A DNA stretch of 64,000 bases from Escherichia coli (lineage in GTDB: Bacteria > Pseudomonadota > Gammaproteobacteria > Enterobacterales > Enterobacteriaceae), in the NCBI RefSeq assembly GCF_009931435.1, contig NZ_CP043414.1; one strand, 5' to 3'. Both the position numbers and the translations under genes were made by a program. The notes below the pieces were generated by a model. It was not told the DNA's origin, made no database searches, and saw only the letters and a list, made by a program, of their open reading frames with translations. This document shows, one piece after another, positions 11,860 to 45,327 of this stretch. Every line of letters begins with the position of its first letter. The stretch's first letter is position 1.

Positions 11860-12780
11860 ATGAATATGAAATTGAAAACATTATTCGCAGCGGCCTTCGC
11901 TGTTGTCGGCTTTTGCAGTACCGCCTCTGCGGTAACTTATCCTCTGCCAACCGACGGGAGTCGCGTGGTTGGTCAGAATCAGGTGATCACCATTCCTGAA
12001 GGTAACACTCAGCCGCTGGAGTATTTTGCCGCCGAGTACCAGATGGGTCTTTCCAACATGATGGAAGCTAACCCGGGTGTGGATACCTTCCTGCCGAAAG
12101 GCGGTACTGTACTGAACATTCCGCAGCAGCTGATCCTGCCGGATACCGTTCATGAAGGCATTGTCATTAACAGCGCAGAGATGCGTCTCTATTACTATCC
12201 GAAAGGCAGCAACACCGTTATCGTGCTGCCCATCGGCATTGGTCAGTTAGGCAAAGACACGCCTATCAACTGGACCACCAAAGTTGAGCGTAAGAAAGCA
12301 GGCCCGACCTGGACGCCGACCGCAAAAATGCACGCAGAGTACCGCGCTGCGGGCGAACCGCTTCCGGCTGTCGTTCCGGCAGGTCCGGATAACCCGATGG
12401 GGCTGTATGCACTCTACATCGGTCGCCTGTACGCTATCCATGGCACCAACGCCAACTTCGGTATCGGTCTGCGTGTAAGTCATGGCTGTGTGCGTCTGCG
12501 TAACGAAGACATCAAATTCCTGTTCGAGAAAGTACCGGTCGGTACTCGCGTACAGTTTATTGATGAGCCGGTAAAAGCGACCACCGAGCCTGACGGCAGC
12601 CGTTATATTGAAGTCCATAACCCGCTGTCTACCACCGAAGCCCAGTTTGAAGGTCAGGAAATTGTGCCAATTACCCTGACCAAGAGCGTGCAGACAGTAA
12701 CTGGTCAGCCTGATGTTGACCAGGTTGTTCTGGATGAAGCGATCAAAAATCGTTCCGGGATGCCGGTTCGTCTGAATTAA
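11860..12780 (+). CDS. ldtB: L,D-transpeptidase LdtB (YbiS)
   Basis: 306 aa with signal peptide and catalytic SHGC motif ([10 protein letters not shown]). Confidence 0.85.
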
Positions 12781-33980: not shown

Positions 33981-35756
33981 ATGGCTAAATACTCCGAAGA
34001 ACTAAAAGGCGTTGTTCGCGCACTTTATTTGCGCCGCTATACGCCAAAAGAAATTGCATCAGAATTAAATCTGCCGAATGCGCGGATCGTTTACTACTGG
34101 GCGGAAAAATACAGCTGGGCAGATTTACTCAGTTTTGAAAGCACAGAAGAAGCGATCGAACGCCGTTACCAGCTGCTGGCCAGTCGCGATAACAAAACCG
34201 ATCTCGACCTGAAAGAAATGGACATGCTTATTGCACACGCCACGAAGCTGCGTGCTCAAAGCAATAAGCATAAAGAGAAGATGGCCAGCGGACAGGGAAG
34301 CGGGCAAGCAGCTGCGCGGGACAACAATGACGATGAATCCCGCAGCAAACGCAAATACAAGAAAAACGATATCTCATCGCTGACCCAGGAAGATTTTGAC
34401 GCTTGGGCAGAAGAGCATCTTTTTGAATACCAGAAACACCTGCGCCTGAACATTGGCCAACTGGTGCGAAACATCCTCAAAAGCCGCCAGATTGGTGCCA
34501 CTTGGTATTTTGCGTATGAAGCGTTTGAAAACGCCGTAATAACCGGCGATCCGCAAATCTTCCTGTCCGCCTCCAAAGCTCAGGCAGAAGTATTCCGTTC
34601 GTATATCGTCAACATTGCCGAGCAGTATTTCGGCATCACGCTGACCGGCAACCCGATCCGTTTAAGCAACGGCGCAGAGCTGCGTTTTCTCTCCACCAAT
34701 AAAAATACAGCGCAGTCCTACAGCGGCCACCTGTACTGCGACGAATATTTCTGGGTGCCGAACTTCACCCGGCTTAACGAAGTAGCCAGTGCGATGGCCA
34801 CGCACGACAAGTGGCGCACCACCTACTTTTCAACGCCGTCAGCCAAAACACACCAGGCGTACCCGTTCTGGACAGGTGAGGAATGGACACAGGGCAGTAA
34901 AAAACGAGCGGCAGTTAAATTCCCGTCCTTTGACGAAATGCGCGATGGCGGACGTCTTTGCCCGGATGGTCAGTGGCGCTACGTCATTACGATGGAAGAT
35001 GCCATTGCGGGCGGCTTTAACCTGGCCAACATCGAGAAACTGCGCAACCGCTACAACACGGCCACTTTTAACATGCTCTATATGTGCGTGTTCGTGGACA
35101 GCAAAGACTCCGTTTTCAGTTTCGCGGATCTGGAAGCCTGCGGCGTGGAGGTGGACACCTGGCAGGATCATAACCCGGATGCCCTGCGCCCCTTCGGAGA
35201 CAGACCCGTCTGGGGCGGTTTTGACCCGGCACGCAGCGGCGATTTGTCGTGTTTCGTCATTGTCGCCCCGCCGATGTTTGCCGTGGAGAAATTCCGCGTT
35301 CTGAAAGTGATTTACTGGAAGGGAATGAACTTCAGATACCAGGCAAAACAGATCGAACAGCTGTTTAAAAAATACAACTTCACGTATCTGGGCGTTGACG
35401 TTACCGGCATTGGCCAGGGTGTTTTTGACAATATCCAGCATTTCGCCATGCGTGTGGCCGTCGCCATTCGTTACGACATGAACACCCAAAACCAGCTGGT
35501 ACTGAAGGCGGCAGACGTGGTGGAAAGCCAGCGCATTGAATGGGACAAAAACCTGAAAGAGATCCCGGCCAGTTTTATGTCCGTGCGCCGAACCACCACA
35601 CAGAGCGGCAACGCCATGACGTTTGTCGCAGACCGCAGCCAGGACACTGGTCACGCAGAGGCATTCTGGGCAATCACCCACGCCCTGCATAACGAGCCTC
35701 TGAACTACGAAAACAAACCGAAATCCCGCTGGGGTGTGAGGAACAAAGCAGCATGA
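33981..35756 (+). CDS. Terminase large (ATPase) subunit, gpP-like
   Basis: Track ORF starts at TTG 33918; ATG at 33981 gives ~591 aa, the size of P2 gpP; divergent from O-N-M-L. Confidence 0.75.
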   Translation: MAKYSEELKGVVRALYLRRYTPKEIASELNLPNARIVYYWAEKYSWADLLSFESTEEAIERRYQLLASRDNKTDLDLKEMDMLIAHATKLRAQSNKHKEKMASGQGSGQAAARDNNDDESRSKRKYKKNDISSLTQEDFDAWAEEHLFEYQKHLRLNIGQLVRNILKSRQIGATWYFAYEAFENAVITGDPQIFLSASKAQAEVFRSYIVNIAEQYFGITLTGNPIRLSNGAELRFLSTNKNTAQSYSGHLYCDEYFWVPNFTRLNEVASAMATHDKWRTTYFSTPSAKTHQAYPFWTGEEWTQGSKKRAAVKFPSFDEMRDGGRLCPDGQWRYVITMEDAIAGGFNLANIEKLRNRYNTATFNMLYMCVFVDSKDSVFSFADLEACGVEVDTWQDHNPDALRPFGDRPVWGGFDPARSGDLSCFVIVAPPMFAVEKFRVLKVIYWKGMNFRYQAKQIEQLFKKYNFTYLGVDVTGIGQGVFDNIQHFAMRVAVAIRYDMNTQNQLVLKAADVVESQRIEWDKNLKEIPASFMSVRRTTTQSGNAMTFVADRSQDTGHAEAFWAITHALHNEPLNYENKPKSRWGVRNKAA

Positions 35757-36814
35757 GCAAAAAGAAACGCTTCGTTAAGCGCGACCCGCGCGGCGATAAA
35801 TCAAAAAAGATGAGCATTATCACGTTCGACAAACCGGAACCAGTGCTGACCACCGGCACGGATTACCGTGATATCTGGTATGACAACGCCGCAGATCACT
35901 ACACCCAGCCGATTGACCGGCTGGCGCTGGCGCAACTTATCAACCTTAACGGCCAGCATGGTGGCATCATCCACGCCCGAAAAAATATGATTGTGTCCGA
36001 TTACCTAGGGGGCGGTCTGACGTATGACCAGCTTGAAGCCGCAGCGTTTGACTATACGACCTTCGGAGATATCGCGATTGGCAAAATCCGCAATGGCTGG
36101 GGAGACGTGATCGGGCTGGAGCCTTTACCCGGTCTGTATATCCGCCGCCGTAAACTCAGGGATAACGCAGAAAATGTACCCGGTGATTATGTGGTTCTAC
36201 AGGAAGGAGAGCCGCAAATCTGGCCGCAGGAAGACATTATTTTTATCAAAATGTATGACCCCCAGCAGCACATCTACGGGCTGCCGGATTATATCGGAGG
36301 GGTGCATTCGGCCTTACTGAACAGTGAGGCGGTCATTTTCCGCCGTCGCTACTACCATAACGGCGCCCATACGGGTGGCATCCTGTACACGCGTGACCCC
36401 AGCATGACGGATGAAATGGAAGAAGAGATTGAACAGCAGCTGCGTGACAGCAAAGGGATCGGCAACTTCTCCACCATTCTGGTGAACATTCCAGGCGGGG
36501 ACGGTGACGCCATCAAATTCATTGAAATGGGGGATATCTCTGCAAAAGATGAATTTGCCAACATCAAAAATATCAGTGCGCAGGACATTCTCAACGCTCA
36601 CCGCTTTCCCGCAGGGCTGGCCGGAATTGTCCCGCAGAATACTGCCGGGCTGGGTGATGTTGAAAAGGCTGAAAGGATTTACAAGAAAAGCGAGATAGCG
36701 CCCATTCAGCGCCGGTTTATGACCGCTGTTAACAACGATCCCGAAATACCTGAACGGCTGCATCTTAACTTCGATTTAAGTTACACAGAATCAACGGATA
36801 AGGATGCGGCATGA
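35753..36814 (+). CDS. Portal protein, gpQ-like
   Basis: 353 aa, start overlaps terminase stop; P2-type P-Q arrangement. Confidence 0.75.
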   Translation: MSKKKRFVKRDPRGDKSKKMSIITFDKPEPVLTTGTDYRDIWYDNAADHYTQPIDRLALAQLINLNGQHGGIIHARKNMIVSDYLGGGLTYDQLEAAAFDYTTFGDIAIGKIRNGWGDVIGLEPLPGLYIRRRKLRDNAENVPGDYVVLQEGEPQIWPQEDIIFIKMYDPQQHIYGLPDYIGGVHSALLNSEAVIFRRRYYHNGAHTGGILYTRDPSMTDEMEEEIEQQLRDSKGIGNFSTILVNIPGGDGDAIKFIEMGDISAKDEFANIKNISAQDILNAHRFPAGLAGIVPQNTAGLGDVEKAERIYKKSEIAPIQRRFMTAVNNDPEIPERLHLNFDLSYTESTDKDAA

Positions 36815-36864
36815 GGCGAAAAAGGCTAAAATCCAGGCATCATTTAACAGCTGGAGCATGGAAT

Positions 36865-37134
36865 ATGCGAGTTCTGAAAATCGAATGCCCGGAATGCGGC
36901 TCAAAGGCTGTTATTCGTAAAACAAACCGGAAGCACCGGCAGATTGCGGATATTTACTGCGCATGTTCAGATGTGGAGTGTGGCCATACTTTTGTTATGA
37001 ACCTGACGTTCTCCCACACTCTCAGCCCCAGCGCTAAAACGGGTGATGCGATGGTGCAAAAAATACTGAATGCACTTTCACCCGATCAGCGCCAGATGGC
37101 ATTAGACCTACTGAAAGCGCCCCCCGCCGCCTGA
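36865..37134 (+). CDS. Ogr/Delta-family zinc-finger late-gene transcription activator (C-terminally extended)
   Basis: From ATG 36865: MRVLKIECPECG...YCACSDVECGHTF matches C-x2-C...C-x4-C-x2-TF spacing of Ogr/Delta/186 B. Confidence 0.6.
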   Translation: MRVLKIECPECGSKAVIRKTNRKHRQIADIYCACSDVECGHTFVMNLTFSHTLSPSAKTGDAMVQKILNALSPDQRQMALDLLKAPPAA

Positions 37135-40808: not shown

Positions 40809-41210
40809 TTAGTGAAAAGCGGGTTGTACAGTGACTGCGGAATGATTCGGTGCTGGAATAAGGTGCAGCTCGTACGTTGTCCGCCACCACTCCTGGATCA
40901 GTGCTTTAATCTCGCCAACACCCAACGCCCCGGCCGTATAGAAAATTGCGCGGATTCCGGCAATTGCTTCAATTTGCGCTTCTTTGCTCTCTGCCTCGCG
41001 GTACACGCAGCACCAAAAAGCGGCATTTATCGCCAGCCAATGACGCGGGTTAGTCATGTGTTCGGTGTCATTGAAGAAGAAAGGATGCAAAGCGATACGG
41101 CCATTTTTACTGGTACTTTTCTCAGCAAAAGCCACAGCGTAATTGTGAGGAACTCCCCACGCGGCCAATTCAGCCCCTAACGATTTACCTTCAACGGAAA
41201 TAATGGCCAT
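40809..41210 (-). CDS. Hypothetical phage early protein (133 aa)
   Basis: ORF track; co-directional early operon. Confidence 0.35.
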   Translation of the reverse strand: MAIISVEGKSLGAELAAWGVPHNYAVAFAEKSTSKNGRIALHPFFFNDTEHMTNPRHWLAINAAFWCCVYREAESKEAQIEAIAGIRAIFYTAGALGVGEIKALIQEWWRTTYELHLIPAPNHSAVTVQPAFH

Positions 41211-41638
41211 CAGAGATTCCCTTGTTGTTGCAACTTATGGACGATGTGAGGCGCGATAATCATCTGCGGCCCCCGATTGTTAATGATTGGATAAACCCGC
41301 TTTATCGGACGGTTCACGGTACTTTTAGAAAAATCACTGTCACGCAATGACCCGAATCCGTTCATCGTCAGACGCGCTCGGGAAATGCCGCAACGCAGTT
41401 GAATCATTGCCCGGTAATCCAGACGCTCAAACAGCTCCCGCCAGCAGCATTTGCTTAAGTGGGCTTTGAATACACTCAAGCCAGAATTAACAGCGGCGGC
41501 ATGGAGAACTACCCCGCGCCATTCAGGTGTTAATTTGTCCCACCAGTCAGCAGCCTCACTACTGGTATTGAAGTATTTGCGGCGAATCTTTTTAAGCTGT
41601 TCCAGTCCGCGCTGTTGCTGTTCCTGGCTAATTGCCAT
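41210..41638 (-). CDS. Hypothetical phage early protein (142 aa)
   Basis: ORF track; start adjacent to stop of upstream small ORF. Confidence 0.35.
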   Translation of the reverse strand: MAISQEQQQRGLEQLKKIRRKYFNTSSEAADWWDKLTPEWRGVVLHAAAVNSGLSVFKAHLSKCCWRELFERLDYRAMIQLRCGISRARLTMNGFGSLRDSDFSKSTVNRPIKRVYPIINNRGPQMIIAPHIVHKLQQQGNL

Positions 41639-41647
41639 AACCCCCCC

Positions 41648-41821
41648 CTATAGCCCCATCAGGCGACGCCACCACGGACGGCGCGGTTGCTGACCATTGA
41701 ATTTGTACATATGACTTGGATTCCAGCGCTGACCAGTTGGCAGTTCGATCCAGCCAGTGGAACCGCTTGGCAGCTGCATAGCCGGTGATTCATTTTTCAG
41801 ATAAGTGACGAACACTTTCAT
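41648..41821 (-). CDS. Hypothetical small phage protein (57 aa, MKVFVTYLKNESPAMQLPSG...)
   Basis: Below ORF-track cutoff; ATG 41819-41821 with gagggag RBS 10 nt after CII-like stop. Confidence 0.35.
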   Translation of the reverse strand: MKVFVTYLKNESPAMQLPSGSTGWIELPTGQRWNPSHMYKFNGQQPRRPWWRRLMGL

Positions 41822-41830
41822 GGTGCTCCC

Positions 41831-42334
41831 TCACATCAAGCCGGTCGCATTAGCCGTAACCAGATCCACCGCTGCGGCCAGAACGGGCGCAGACTGGATA
41901 CGGCTTTCAACGGTATAAGCCAGCACGGATAAGCTGCGGATGGCATCGCGAGCGCGATCCAGAATTTGTGTACGGCGGGCGGCGGTCATATGACCAGTTG
42001 ATACGGCTTCCCCAGCAATTGCACCCACACAGGCTGTGGCACTTAGTGCACACAACTGCATGTTGCCTTCTGTGGCATTGTTCACCGGTACGGATGGGAG
42101 ACAGTTAATCTGCCCCAGCATTCCATCCAGTAAACGTGCATCTTCGGTGTAATCCGTAATAGCTAAAAGCTCGTCACAGGTTAAACGGTGCGGCTGTGCT
42201 GGATTCAATTTGTTACGCAGAATCTGCGGCCTCATACCAACGGCAGCGGCTACATCTTCCAGATTGTGTTCAATTGCAAATGCTCGGCAAGCCGCATCAA
42301 AGTGAGCATGTTTAGAGGTCTGGTAATCAAACAT
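41831..42334 (-). CDS. CII-like phage regulatory protein (186 CII / CP76-type)
   Basis: 167 aa, position immediately downstream of apl/cox-like gene as in 186. Confidence 0.45.
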   Translation of the reverse strand: MFDYQTSKHAHFDAACRAFAIEHNLEDVAAAVGMRPQILRNKLNPAQPHRLTCDELLAITDYTEDARLLDGMLGQINCLPSVPVNNATEGNMQLCALSATACVGAIAGEAVSTGHMTAARRTQILDRARDAIRSLSVLAYTVESRIQSAPVLAAAVDLVTANATGLM

Positions 42335-42364
42335 TGTTTGCCTCTCCCTAATCCGTAGGATGGA

Positions 42365-42619
42365 TTACGCGTTAAGCGAAATATCACATTCGCTTAACGC
42401 CTGAATGGTAAGCGCGGCCATGTTGACTTCGACCAGGCCTTTCTTTTGCTTACCCTTCGGCTTGATAGGTAATTTTCCGTATTCGATCAGGTTCCTAGCG
42501 GTTTCTTTGTTAGTACCAGTACGGCGGCAATACTCGTCTAGAGGCAGGTATGGTTCTGGGATGATGATTGTAATGTTTGGACGCATAAGGCAAACTCCAC
42601 AAGTTAACCTGTACGGCAA
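42365..42619 (-). CDS. Apl/Cox-like or Cro-like small DNA-binding switch protein
   Basis: 84-aa ORF (alt start MRPNITIII at 42586) divergent from CI-like repressor gene. Confidence 0.4.
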   Translation of the reverse strand: MPYRLTCGVCLMRPNITIIIPEPYLPLDEYCRRTGTNKETARNLIEYGKLPIKPKGKQKKGLVEVNMAALTIQALSECDISLNA

Positions 42620-42721
42620 TACAGGGTTATATAAGGCTGCATTCGAAATGTGGAGCCAGATTAATTCGCGTTTCGAGAAGTGTCAATCACAATTTCTCGA
42701 ATCGAGATTTATGGATTCGTT
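42620..42721. promoter_or_regulatory. Lysis-lysogeny switch region with operator-like inverted repeats
   Basis: TTCGAGAA-N14-TTCTCGAA perfect 8-bp inverted repeat (about 42671-42700) and CGAAAtg...cgTTTCG, between divergent regulators. Confidence 0.4.
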
Positions 42722-43303
42722 ATGAGCACATTCAAAATTGACCTGAACGTTGACAGCACCCCGATTCTGGATCGGGTGATCGAGGCTTACGGATTTACGC
42801 AGAAGTTACAGCTAGCAGAACATCTGGACATGGCTGCCAGTTCTCTATCATCACGCTATAAACGTGGAGTTTTCCCAGCTGATATCGTCGTTAAATGTGT
42901 TGCTGAAACAGGCGCTAACCTGGAATGGCTAGCTACTGGTCACGGCCCCAAATTTAATGATGAAGAATTAGACATTCTCAGAATTCCACGCAGCAAGATC
43001 GTTGATGGCCAGCTTTACGACTCAGGCACTCTTATGCTTGATAAAGTCACTTTCCTACCAGGTAAATCACTACCACAACAGCCGTTATGCGTTTTGGATG
43101 GTCTTGTACAGTACATCGTTGACCAGTCTTACTCTGAAGTTTATGACGACGATTGGCTGGTTGAAGTAGAAGGAAAAATTAGCATTCGTACACTGACAAG
43201 AATTCCAGTACGCAAAGTAAGAGTTAGTGGCGTGGGCATGGCTTTTGATTGTGGCATCGACGACATAAAAATCATTGGCCGCGTAGTTCTGACGATTAAA
43301 TAA
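42722..43303 (+). CDS. CI-like prophage repressor (186 CI-type)
   Basis: Track ORF starts at GTG 42680; ATG 42722 gives 193 aa (MSTFKIDLNV...); int immediately downstream. Confidence 0.55.
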   Translation: MSTFKIDLNVDSTPILDRVIEAYGFTQKLQLAEHLDMAASSLSSRYKRGVFPADIVVKCVAETGANLEWLATGHGPKFNDEELDILRIPRSKIVDGQLYDSGTLMLDKVTFLPGKSLPQQPLCVLDGLVQYIVDQSYSEVYDDDWLVEVEGKISIRTLTRIPVRKVRVSGVGMAFDCGIDDIKIIGRVVLTIK

Positions 43304-43304
43304 A

Positions 43305-44360
43305 ATGAGTGTTCGTAAACTTCCTACTGGCGAATGGATCGCCGACTTCTACACCGTCAACCGCAGCAATGGTAAAAACGGGAAGCGTATACGTAAAAAA
43401 TTTGCCACTAAGGGAGAAGCCCTGGCATTTGAGAATCACACGCTTCAAAAGGTAGATAGTGCGCCGTGGTTAGGTGAAGGGAAAGATAAACGAACATTAA
43501 TCGACCTGATTACAATGTGGTACGAGCGCCACGGCGTTGCCCTACGCAATGGTAAAAAGCGTAAAGACGCAATGACCTGGGCGGCGGAGTGTATGGGTTT
43601 TCCGCTGGCCACTGAGTTTAATGCCCAGCTGTTTACAGCATACCGTGCAAAAAGGCTTGAAGGGCATTATGCCCGTACTAACCGTGTTTCTAAGGTTTCA
43701 CCTAAAACAATGAACCTTGAACACGCATATTTTCTGGCTATGTTCAATGAACTGAAACGGATCGGTGAGTGGTCAGCCCCTAACCCACTGGAGAACGTCA
43801 GACAGTACCGTACAGATGAAACTGAAATGGCATTTCTCACTGCTGAGGAAATTGATCGGCTTTTGCTGGAATGCAAACGCAGTAAAGTAAGTTATTTAGA
43901 GTTAGTCGTAAAAATCTGTCTGGCGACTGGCGCAAGATGGAATGAAGCGGCAACACTCAAAAGTTCCCAGATAGCCGGCGGAAAAGTCACCTTCATAAAA
44001 ACAAAAGGGAAAAGGAACCGTTCCATTCCGTTAGATGATGAACTGCTGGCTGAACTACCCGAAACAAAAGGCGCTCTGTTTCCAAAGCCCTGCTATAACG
44101 CTTTCCGTTCCGCTCTGGAACGTGCTGGCATTGAACTACCAGCAGGTCAGCTTACCCACGTACTACGCCATACATTTGCCAGCCACTTTATGATGAACAG
44201 CGGCAACATTCTGGTTCTCCAAAAAATCCTCGGCCATGCCGATATCACTATGACAATGCGGTATGCGCATTTCGCCCCAAGCCACCTTGAAGACGCTGTG
44301 CGACTTAATCCCTTAAAATGCCGCAGCAGCTTAGAAATACTGTCGAGTACCAAAACATAA
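43305..44360 (+). CDS. int: Tyrosine-type phage integrase
   Basis: 351 aa; C-terminal catalytic region HVLRHTFASH...LGHADITMTMRYAHF (R, HxxR, Y). Confidence 0.85.
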   Translation: MSVRKLPTGEWIADFYTVNRSNGKNGKRIRKKFATKGEALAFENHTLQKVDSAPWLGEGKDKRTLIDLITMWYERHGVALRNGKKRKDAMTWAAECMGFPLATEFNAQLFTAYRAKRLEGHYARTNRVSKVSPKTMNLEHAYFLAMFNELKRIGEWSAPNPLENVRQYRTDETEMAFLTAEEIDRLLLECKRSKVSYLELVVKICLATGARWNEAATLKSSQIAGGKVTFIKTKGKRNRSIPLDDELLAELPETKGALFPKPCYNAFRSALERAGIELPAGQLTHVLRHTFASHFMMNSGNILVLQKILGHADITMTMRYAHFAPSHLEDAVRLNPLKCRSSLEILSSTKT

Positions 44361-44380
44361 ACAACAAAGATAAAAGGTCT

Positions 44381-44962
44381 CTAACCTGTTTTCAGCAACA
44401 ACCACTGGAGGAAAACAACAACAATGTAGATTAAAGTTACAGACCCCAGAAACAGCAATAGTTGACAAAAATGAATAAAGGCCGGATGGTGAAGTTTTTG
44501 AGGAACCAAGGTTATATTTCGTGCAATTCCTTCTTTACATCTCACTGTGAGCAACGCGGGTAAGTCAGTATTTATCGACATAACCTCACATCGTATAGAT
44601 TCATGTGGTGCAAGATAATCAAACAACATAACCTGCCTTTCTTCGGCATCACTCTTAATTGTGTAATGCCTTGAGGGCCAAATGTTTACGTACATAGGTG
44701 GGTAATTGAAAATTATCTCCACATTAGTAGCAGGTTCTTTTCCTTCGTTTTTAAAGGCATAGGATTTTGTATGCACCACCTGTTTTGCCTTAACAATTTC
44801 ACCTTCAGCATTACGTAACGGCTCGTTAATTAAATAGCTATATTGGTGAAGCTCTCCATAGCAAATTTTCGCTCCATTTTTAAAAATCTTATTGATAAAT
44901 AAGGTAAAAACAGGAACGAAAAGTGCAAATATTTCTTTCCCATACTGAGTAAGTATATTCAT
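44381..44962 (-). CDS. Hypothetical 193-aa protein with C-terminal TM helix; orphan cargo adjacent to int
   Basis: ORF track; A/T-rich; hydrophobic C-terminus AFIHFCQLLLFLGSVTLIYIVVVFLQWLLL; convergent with int; weak RBS. Confidence 0.4.
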   Translation of the reverse strand: MNILTQYGKEIFALFVPVFTLFINKIFKNGAKICYGELHQYSYLINEPLRNAEGEIVKAKQVVHTKSYAFKNEGKEPATNVEIIFNYPPMYVNIWPSRHYTIKSDAEERQVMLFDYLAPHESIRCEVMSINTDLPALLTVRCKEGIARNITLVPQKLHHPAFIHFCQLLLFLGSVTLIYIVVVFLQWLLLKTG

Positions 44963-45104: not shown

Positions 45105-45260
45105 AGCGTACCCATTTTAATTTCAGCCGCTTTCTGGCTTGCAGCCGCTACCCCCGCATTGCGCGGTGCATTTCGCCCCAAGCTACCTTGAAGAAGCTGT
45201 ACGCTTAACCCCTTAAAATGTCGCAAAATTGTCGCGACAGCTTAGAAACACTGCCGAATA
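45105..45260. pseudogene. Fossil fragments of a related element: dam-like 3' end (minus sense) fused to int-like 3' end (plus sense)
   Basis: 45121-45180 about 75 percent identical to dam 3' region 39703-39760; 45168-45260 about 90 percent identical to int 3' end 44268-44350 but with 1-nt deletion and ~11-nt insertion. Confidence 0.5.
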
Positions 45261-45327
45261 CTCACGAATATTAACTAACGTAACTTATTGATAACACTGT
45301 AAGTTACTGTTTTTCGTAGATAGTTAA

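Follow-up and report, generated by a model that had tools for sequence, protein, structure and literature searches.

The window analyzed here is a 64-kb (64,000-nt) stretch of Escherichia coli DNA. It contains a 186-like (Peduoviridae) prophage, which is the source of the switch region described below (Table 1). The genes of the switch are arranged in the order int and cI on the plus strand, and the cox/apl-like gene and cII on the minus strand. A tyrosine integrase is encoded 3′ of cI, and a 186-type CII (identified with Pfam) is encoded after the cox/apl-like gene. As judged from the ORFs, the Pfam matches, and the RefSeq and phage annotations of relatives, this arrangement, with int-cI on one strand and apl/cox-cII-fil on the other, is the gene order of 186. 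The cI ORF carries both Phage_CI_repr (PF07022, 8.7e-23) and Phage_CI_C (PF16452, 1.5e-31), Pfam domains which were both built on the 186 repressor. Its product is 47% identical to 186 CI and matches the crystal structure of that protein (PDB 2FJR, 9.6e-40) over residues 12–189; the homology covers the N-terminal helix-turn-helix and the C-terminal oligomerization domain. The Pfam search found no S24 peptidase domain in the window CI. The product of the cox/apl-like gene belongs to phrog_575, "Cox-like excisionase and repressor" (1.5e-27), and BLASTP gives no alignment between this protein and 186 Apl. Matches to the switch are present in 29 of 5,426 complete E. coli genomes, 12 of them at an identity of at least 95%; the copies in complete genomes are annotated, and are identical or near-identical to the window switch.

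Table 1. Features of the cI–apl switch region, with positions given in window coordinates
Feature	Position	Strand	Sequence and remarks
cI	42722–43303	+	193-aa 186-type immunity repressor; RefSeq starts at ATG 42722
O1 (likely operator)	42694–42708		TTCTCG-AAT-CGAGAT; 5′ of the pR −35 box, center at about −50 from the predicted start
pR −35 box	42681–42686	−	TTGACA; holds GTG 42680–42682
O2 (likely operator)	42665–42679		TTCGCG-TTT-CGAGAA; fills the 17-bp pR spacer (42664–42680), center at about −21
pR −10 box	42658–42663	−	TAATCT, 17 bp from the −35 box; predicted start ~42651, toward apl
O3 candidate (weak)	42633–42647		AAGGCT-GCA-TTCGAA; 32 bp from O2, over the pR transcript start
Hairpin	42608–42625	+	CCTGTA-CGGCAA-TACAGG; between the predicted pL and pR starts; stem covariation
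pL (predicted)	42568–42596	+	TTGTAA 42568–42573, N17 with the apl start codon, CAAACT 42591–42596; start ~42603
cox/apl-like gene	42365–42586	−	73 aa, first gene of the lytic operon; RefSeq CDS WP_001247709.1
FR-like candidate (low confidence)	42366–42380		TACGCG-TTA-AGCGAA, at the apl stop codon; 299 bp from the O2 center

The initial annotation of this region had left two start codons open for each of the divergent genes. All four codons are indeed present (GTG 42680 and ATG 42722 for cI, TTG 42619 and ATG 42586 for apl), and RefSeq and the relatives resolve the ambiguity to ATG 42722 and ATG 42586. GTG 42680 lies in the −35 box of the promoter described below, and in 43 of 65 distinct relatives an in-frame stop codon occurs no more than 14 codons upstream of the aligned ATG. 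TTG 42619 falls in a hairpin loop. The hairpin stands 14, 15 or 16 nt from the apl ATG depending on the relative, so that the TTG is usually out of frame. A GGAG sequence lies 8 nt upstream of ATG 42586. Given these two starts, the suggested overlap between operators and coding sequence disappears.

Our comparison set comprises ~85 related loci, including 80 IMG/VR loci whose CI proteins are 64–100% identical to that of the window. Among 56 distinct relatives, the minus-strand −35 box reads TTGACA in 38; its T1 and T2 are invariant, and G3 and A4 are kept in 53. The −10 box retains T1 in 55, and A2 and T6 in 54 of these relatives, at a fixed spacing of 17 bp. A generic sigma-70 scan of 42300–42900 returned no promoter, because the −10 box matches TATAAT at only three of six positions, and pR was recovered only from conservation. 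On this comparative evidence, we identify TTGACA-N17-TAATCT as the predicted conserved lytic promoter pR, adjoining the cI start. At the predicted pR start, CTCC (GGAG on the plus strand, 42652–42655) is kept in nearly all relatives, and no plus-strand start codon follows it.

The position of pL is suggested by an alignment with 186. The sequence TGATGATTGTAA...CAT...CAAACT aligns position for position with TGATGATTGCGA...CAT...CATGAT of 186, with the apl start codon in the spacer, and the annotated pL of 186 is TTGCGA-N17-CATGAT. The stretch is invariant in 56 relatives; the same stretch encodes the apl start and ribosome-binding site, so its invariance is not independent evidence for a promoter. 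By this analogy, we infer that pL lies at the apl start and faces pR, such that the predicted starts (~42651 on the minus strand and ~42603 on the plus strand) point toward each other across ~49 bp.

In the spacer between cI and apl, a perfect inverted repeat had been reported, and it is present as described: TTCGAGAA (42672–42679) and TTCTCGAA (42694–42701), with exactly 14 bases between them. The symmetry reaches further, to 18-nt arms with 83% complementarity (42662–42679 and 42694–42711). The exact pattern TTCGAGAA-N14-TTCTCGAA occurs once in the 64-kb window, and with up to three mismatches it occurs twice (the other match is at 12523), against 0.2 expected. Taken alone, the 8-bp inverted repeat is only marginally unusual, since 239 of 5000 (4.8%) dinucleotide-preserving shuffles of the 135-bp cI–apl spacer contain a perfect one whose loop is at most 30. 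Two similar dyads of 6-3-6 form arise in 1 of 5000 shuffles of the same spacer.

Our parse of the region, made from the sequences, is that the 8-N14-8 repeat represents the facing inner halves of two neighboring 15-bp dyads, the putative operators O1 and O2, with the consensus TTCkCG-N3-CGAGAw. The right arm of the repeat is the left half of O1, and the left arm is the right half of O2. O1 differs from TTCKCGNNNCGMGAA at one position, and O2 has no mismatch to the degenerate consensus. The two sites, 29 bp apart, flank the conserved minus-strand TTGACA (TGTCAA on the plus strand), and O1 spans about −44 to −58 relative to the pR start. Within 41000–44400, three sites come within three mismatches of TTCKCGNNNCGMGAA, namely O2, O1 and a site at the apl stop codon. 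Elsewhere in the window, matches to the operator consensus with one or two mismatches are found at 35121, in a large terminase-like ORF, and at 2147, seemingly outside the prophage; both appear to be due to chance. O1 and O2 are likely to be real CI operators of a 186-type CI/Apl-like switch, situated on a promoter. The initial annotation had expected the operators to overlap pR- and pL-type promoters. This holds for pR, which the two sites bracket, but not for pL, whose predicted position is ~90 bp off, at the start of apl, from where it would face pR.

The relatives show how these sites are constrained. Each of the two 15-bp sites is palindromic by itself, and both are found at the same two positions in ~60 distinct relatives. 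When 66 distinct sequences are compared with respect to the −35 box, sharp peaks of 6-3-6 symmetry appear at exactly two offsets. At the O2 offset, a mean of 4.55 out of 6 pairs are symmetric, and at O1 ~3.0 out of 6 are symmetric in each of two adjacent registers, versus a background of ~1.5 in both cases. The start-to-start spacing of O1 and O2 is 28 bp in 24 and 29 bp in 13 of 60 distinct operator pairs. At least eight dyad arm types are represented, and the heteroimmune dyads seen at these positions include TTAGAT-AAT-ATCTAA, GTAGAT-TAT-ATCTAC, TTCGAC-TTA-ATCGAA, TTCGTA-TTT-TACGAA and TTCGCA-TTT-TGCAAA. Of the 396 bases in the three-base centers, 383 are A or T, as expected for a spacer without protein contact. 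The arms change from type to type, but neither of the promoter boxes does, be it the −35 box that separates the dyads or the −10 box next to O2. Within an immunity group the arms are invariant, and the spacers between and inside them vary; an O2 variant, TTCGCG-TTT-AGCGAA, is seen in the same-immunity relatives L019 and L025.

These comparisons bear on the proposal that TTCGAGAA-N14-TTCTCGAA is a single long-range operator, with half-sites 22 bp apart read by one repressor unit, and that CGAAATG...CGTTTCG is a second operator. In line with this proposal, the 8-bp arms are perfect and centered on the −35 box, and 42662–42711 is roughly symmetric as a whole. However, each of the 15-bp sites forms a dyad of its own, conservation is as good in the outer halves (TTCGCG and CGAGAT) as in the inner ones, and the relatives show two self-symmetric sites rather than one split site. 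The second dyad does exist, with CGAAATG at 42644–42650 and CGTTTCG at 42669–42675 complementary at six of seven bases, but in the same-immunity relatives L011, L017, L018, L019, L024 and L025 it suffers one-sided, uncompensated breaks. Its left arm is CAAAATA or CAAAACA in L011 and L024, and its right arm is CGATTCG in L017, L018 and L024, and CGTTTAG in L019 and L025. The right arm coincides with the center of O2; the left arm shares bases with the weak half-site of O3. A single split operator of this kind is very improbable. What stands of the initial annotation is that the spacer very probably holds CI operators placed on a promoter; the 8-N14-8 repeat as one operator gives way to two 15-bp dyads.

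Could the repeat instead act as RNA, either as a hairpin in the cI (pL) leader that controls translation or as a minus-strand terminator? The putative pL leader (42604–42724) folds O2 to O1 with a predicted energy of −33.3 kcal/mol (z = −3.2), and a terminator scan gives one match, TCTCGATTCGAGA, on the minus strand. Yet the O2:O1 fold follows automatically from the presence of two copies of one palindrome. An RNA stem needs O2 and O1 to be complementary; it needs neither self-palindromic sites nor direct copies. In addition, the centers are nearly all A/T, and a mean of only 1.7 out of 3 center positions are complementary. The stem of the terminator match is 5 bp long, its tail, AATTGTGATT, makes a poor T run, and a single match is no more than shuffles give (0.6 ± 1.0). 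No transcript of the minus strand is expected at this place either, as the match is situated upstream of the pR −35 box. Function of the repeat as RNA appears very improbable.

The dyads co-vary with the CI protein. Taking one representative per distinct helix-turn-helix segment (25 types), we find that O1 and O2 share 8.48 of 12 arm positions within a phage versus 6.52 between phages, and none of 10,000 permutations gives a value as high. Each arm type is associated with a particular CI sequence in the segment after the recognition helix: RG[V/I]FPAD occurs with TTCkCG, and RGGLPAD with TTAGAT. Similarly, SARFKRG[I/V]F occurs with TTCGAC, and LAGRYKRGGF with TCGCA or TCGTA. In the motif RG-x-[F/L]-P after the recognition helix (CI residues ~49–55, encoded by 42866–42886), Phe accompanies TTCG half-sites and Leu accompanies TTAG half-sites across immunity groups, with L069 as an exception; this position is a candidate specificity residue. 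In the window and L004 (MFDS1019527), the Apl-like protein is the same, WP_001247709.1, the CI proteins differ, and the dyads are TTCkCG and TTAGAT, respectively. Because the same Apl-like protein occurs with two dyad types, the sites, on this sequence comparison, follow CI rather than its Apl-like partner. As cI adjoins its upstream region, mere linkage could explain part of the association of CI types with dyad types. Linkage cannot account for the likeness of O1 to O2 or for the self-symmetry of each site.

These findings also speak to the idea that the dyads are sites of another protein of the switch, either the Cox/Apl-like protein or CII. P2-like Cox and Apl proteins do act in the same intergenic region, but one and the same WP_001247709.1 is found with two dyad types, and recombination directionality factors have as their sites direct repeats spaced by one turn rather than dyads. 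For its part, CII of 186 acts at pE near the cII start, ~400 bp away. Recognition of the dyads by either protein is a remote prospect. That the repeat is a functionless product of chance in an A/T-rich spacer, as the 4.8% of shuffles with a perfect 8-bp repeat might suggest, is effectively refuted by the comparative data, given the rarity of two similar dyads in shuffles, the invariance of the arms within an immunity group, and the recurrence of the architecture with other arm sequences in dozens of relatives.

We consider it very probable that the region contains the operators by which the 186-type CI of the prophage shuts off lytic pR. This reading is based on what is observed, namely the layout of the region, a conserved promoter, dyads that are symmetric at fixed positions, and dyad sequences that co-vary with CI type. 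One CI dimer would read each 15-bp dyad (TTCkCG-N3-CGAGAw, with an A/T-rich center). With both O2 (in the pR spacer) and O1 (immediately 5′ of the −35 box) occupied, perhaps cooperatively and perhaps by a wheel-like oligomer, RNA polymerase would be kept off TTGACA-N17-TAATCT. Repression of pR may be strengthened by the weak half-site of O3, which covers the start of the transcript. By analogy with 186, silencing of pR would relieve transcriptional interference on the facing pL, and would in this way sustain cI expression. Several observations count against this reading. The −10 box matches its consensus poorly, the generic scan gave no promoter, and clear distal sites of the FL and FR kind are missing. 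The 29-bp spacing does not correspond to whole helical turns, unlike the two-turn spacing of 186, and the wheel model developed for 186 may not transfer.

For 186, we rely on the annotation of U32222 and on PMC3675496. In 186 (Eganvirus ev186), the annotated CI-binding stretch, 23011–23067, covers pR, and a near-palindrome, ATCTCCCAATTGAGAGAT, fills the stretch that separates the annotated −35 box of pR from its −10 box, as O2 does in the window. Both loci have a homologous repressor, the same gene order, a pR located by the cI start and directed toward apl, and further sites that flank the spacer dyad. The pL predicted for the window by homology would, like that of 186, be situated at the apl start and face pR. 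The half-sites, on the other hand, differ in sequence, and the dyads differ in geometry: those of the window are 15-bp 6-3-6 sites, while in 186 the near-palindrome of pR measures 18 bp and the FL and FR sites measure 17 bp. The partner protein is Cox-like (phrog_575) in the window and Apl in 186. Seven Apl direct repeats, spaced at 10–11 bp, lie between pR and pL in 186; in the window, only three GGCAA-like boxes with irregular spacing are seen (42589, 42615 and 42635). The comparison with 186 operator architecture that the initial annotation recommended shows agreement in the dyad of the pR spacer, but not in the dyad geometry or the spacing, and FL and FR have no clear match.

The spacing of the sites deserves particular attention. 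At pR of 186, three operators lie "two turns" apart and span 56 bp (PMC3675496). No such trio at two turns is seen in the clade of the window, where O1 and O2 are separated by 28–29 bp, and O2 and O3 by 31–33 bp. In the window itself, the center-to-center distances are 29 and 32 bp, or about three turns, versus two turns in 186. At 186 pB, two CI sites are found 32 bp apart, center to center, which is about three helical turns (PMC3675496), and this pair resembles the 29–32 bp spacing of the window. The authors of that work describe the 32-bp spacing at pB as distorting the DNA, and discuss it together with a possible three-turn binding mode (PMC3675496). Spacing of about three turns, then, is standard at pR across the clade of the window, while in 186 it occurs at pB and not at pR. 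The function of pB in 186 is control of the late activator, unlike that of the operators in the window.

Other known switches share some of these features. P2, W-phi and P2 Hy dis, in which C acts at Pe, resemble the window in that early and lysogenic promoters are face to face, the first lytic gene is of the Cox type, and the operator sequence differs between immunity classes. The operators of P2-type C proteins are two direct repeats (PMC1904268). C of the P2 type is a small and unrelated repressor, whereas the window combines inverted repeats with a 193-aa two-domain repressor of the 186 type. In lambda, OR contains several similar dyads (OR1–OR3) on the lytic promoter, their centers 23–29 bp apart, which determine immunity specificity. 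The lambda promoters are back to back, however, and those of the window are face to face. The window also differs from lambda OR in that none of its operators overlaps the maintenance promoter, and in that its CI lacks an S24 peptidase domain.

A third site near pR is less well defined. Only the right half of the O3 candidate resembles a half-site, and in the window's own immunity group it matches at 6 of 12 positions. Many heteroimmune relatives have a half-site of their own type 31–33 bp to the left of O2, for example ATCTAA in the TTAGAT and GTAGAT types. No peak of dyad symmetry is present at the O3 position among 66 distinct relatives.

In 186, distal sites lie ~300 bp to either side, FL inside cI and FR at the apl–cII junction; the window is without convincing counterparts. 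A search with group-specific dyads and with the degenerate window consensus found no own-type dyad inside cI, the place of FL, and the search for distal sites in the window gave no clear equivalent of FL or FR, the only ambiguous case being 42366–42380. This site has two mismatches to the operator consensus, is the only one besides O1 and O2 within three mismatches in 41000–44400, and is one arm base away from the O2 variant of L019 and L025. It overlaps the apl stop codon; FR of 186 is found just past the stop codon of its own apl, in the apl–cII spacer. Against its being FR-like, it encodes the conserved Apl C-terminus SLNA-stop, and it is also present in heteroimmune phages. Own-type distal dyads do occur in some heteroimmune relatives. 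The FR-like TTCGCACCTTACGAA is located at about −385 from the cI ATG, between apl and cII, in L050, L068 and L082, and the FL-like TTAGATATTATCAAA is located inside cI, at +246 from the cI ATG, in L026 and L027.

Two further repeats are found in this neighborhood. A 12-bp perfect inverted repeat, GCGTTAAGCGAA-N8-TTCGCTTAACGC (42369–42400), falls within the final 12 codons of the apl-like gene (ALSE...SLNA) and contains the FR-like near-operator TACGCGTTAAGCGAA at 42366–42380. Considered as an RNA stem, it shows changes among relatives that are both compensating and breaking, and it encodes the conserved ALSE...SLNA. The palindrome TAATCC-N7-GGATTA (inner part ATCC-GTA-GGAT; 42349–42367) lies in the spacer between the apl stop codon and the cII ribosome-binding site. 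This is the place where 186 has FR, and the palindrome is kept in several heteroimmune relatives.

Between the two predicted starts lies a hairpin whose stem covaries. Among 31 variants, ~10 different stems are seen and 89% of cells are paired, a score reached in 0 of 500 shuffles. All seven pairs have changed on both sides, and sliding the pairing by 1–3 columns lowers the paired fraction to 29–41%. The hexaloop CGGCAA is nearly invariant. Five G-U pairs occur on the plus strand and none on the minus strand, which points to the cI-sense transcript, where the hairpin begins ~5 nt from the predicted pL start. The single-sequence fold is unremarkable (−7.3 kcal/mol, z = −0.97), such that covariation is the sole support for the hairpin, and an Rfam search of 42300–42800 (E ≤ 1) gave no match. 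The stem sequence does not track CI type, given that the window and L026 have the same stem and different CI proteins, and it does not track Apl type, given that the window and L004 have the same Apl-like protein and different stems. Hence the constraint looks structural, and on the same grounds we rejected the hairpin dyad as a protein site.

It is possible, though doubtful, that the hairpin is a functional RNA element of the switch and that pR operators about three turns apart are normal for the 186-type CI of this clade, a two-part proposal drawn from the comparison of sequences. The hairpin lies within a stretch that would be transcribed from both pR and pL, and could stabilize the cI message near its 5′ end. 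Alternatively, it could be one partner in a loop-loop contact between the complementary pR and pL leaders.

The GGCAA-like boxes mentioned above share one orientation: GGCAA at 42589–42593, over the pL −10 box; GGCAA at 42615–42619, in the hairpin loop; and GGCTG (GGCAA in most relatives) at 42635–42639, beside O3. In relatives with a CGCCAA loop, the third box is GCCAA or ACCAA. These boxes are possible sites for the Cox-like protein.

Switches of this kind are already known, and the operators are an ordinary and expected part of such a phage switch; nothing here overturns current understanding. The sequence of the sites, the dyad geometry and the spacing are the window's own. One gain is in annotation: the prophage type found in those 29 genomes now has its start codons, its lytic promoter and the operators that determine immunity assigned. 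The relatives supply at least eight naturally occurring CI/operator specificities, all set on the same conserved promoter scaffold. Finally, the operator spacing of about three turns could serve to test the CI wheel model. For 186, there is a mismatch between the two-turn wheel model and the ~180 bp of wrapped DNA seen in AFM (PMC3675496), and the three-turn arrangement at pR, if true, bears on this mismatch.

Two observations concern other parts of the prophage. An ORF for an Ogr/B-like zinc-finger protein (MRVLKIECPECG...), at 36811–37134 on the plus strand, presumably encodes the late activator. CI of 186 also binds the promoter of the counterpart of this gene, and no own-type dyad was seen upstream of the ORF in the window. 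In addition, the 3′ end of int is imperfectly repeated ~900 bp downstream, with cttaatcccttaaaatgccgc...cagcttagaaatactg at 44300–44360 and cttaaccccttaaaatgtcgc...cagcttagaaacactg at 45195–45262. A 193-aa minus-strand ORF (44381–44962) lies between the two copies, and the repeat with its enclosed ORF is probably an att-related duplication with a cargo gene.
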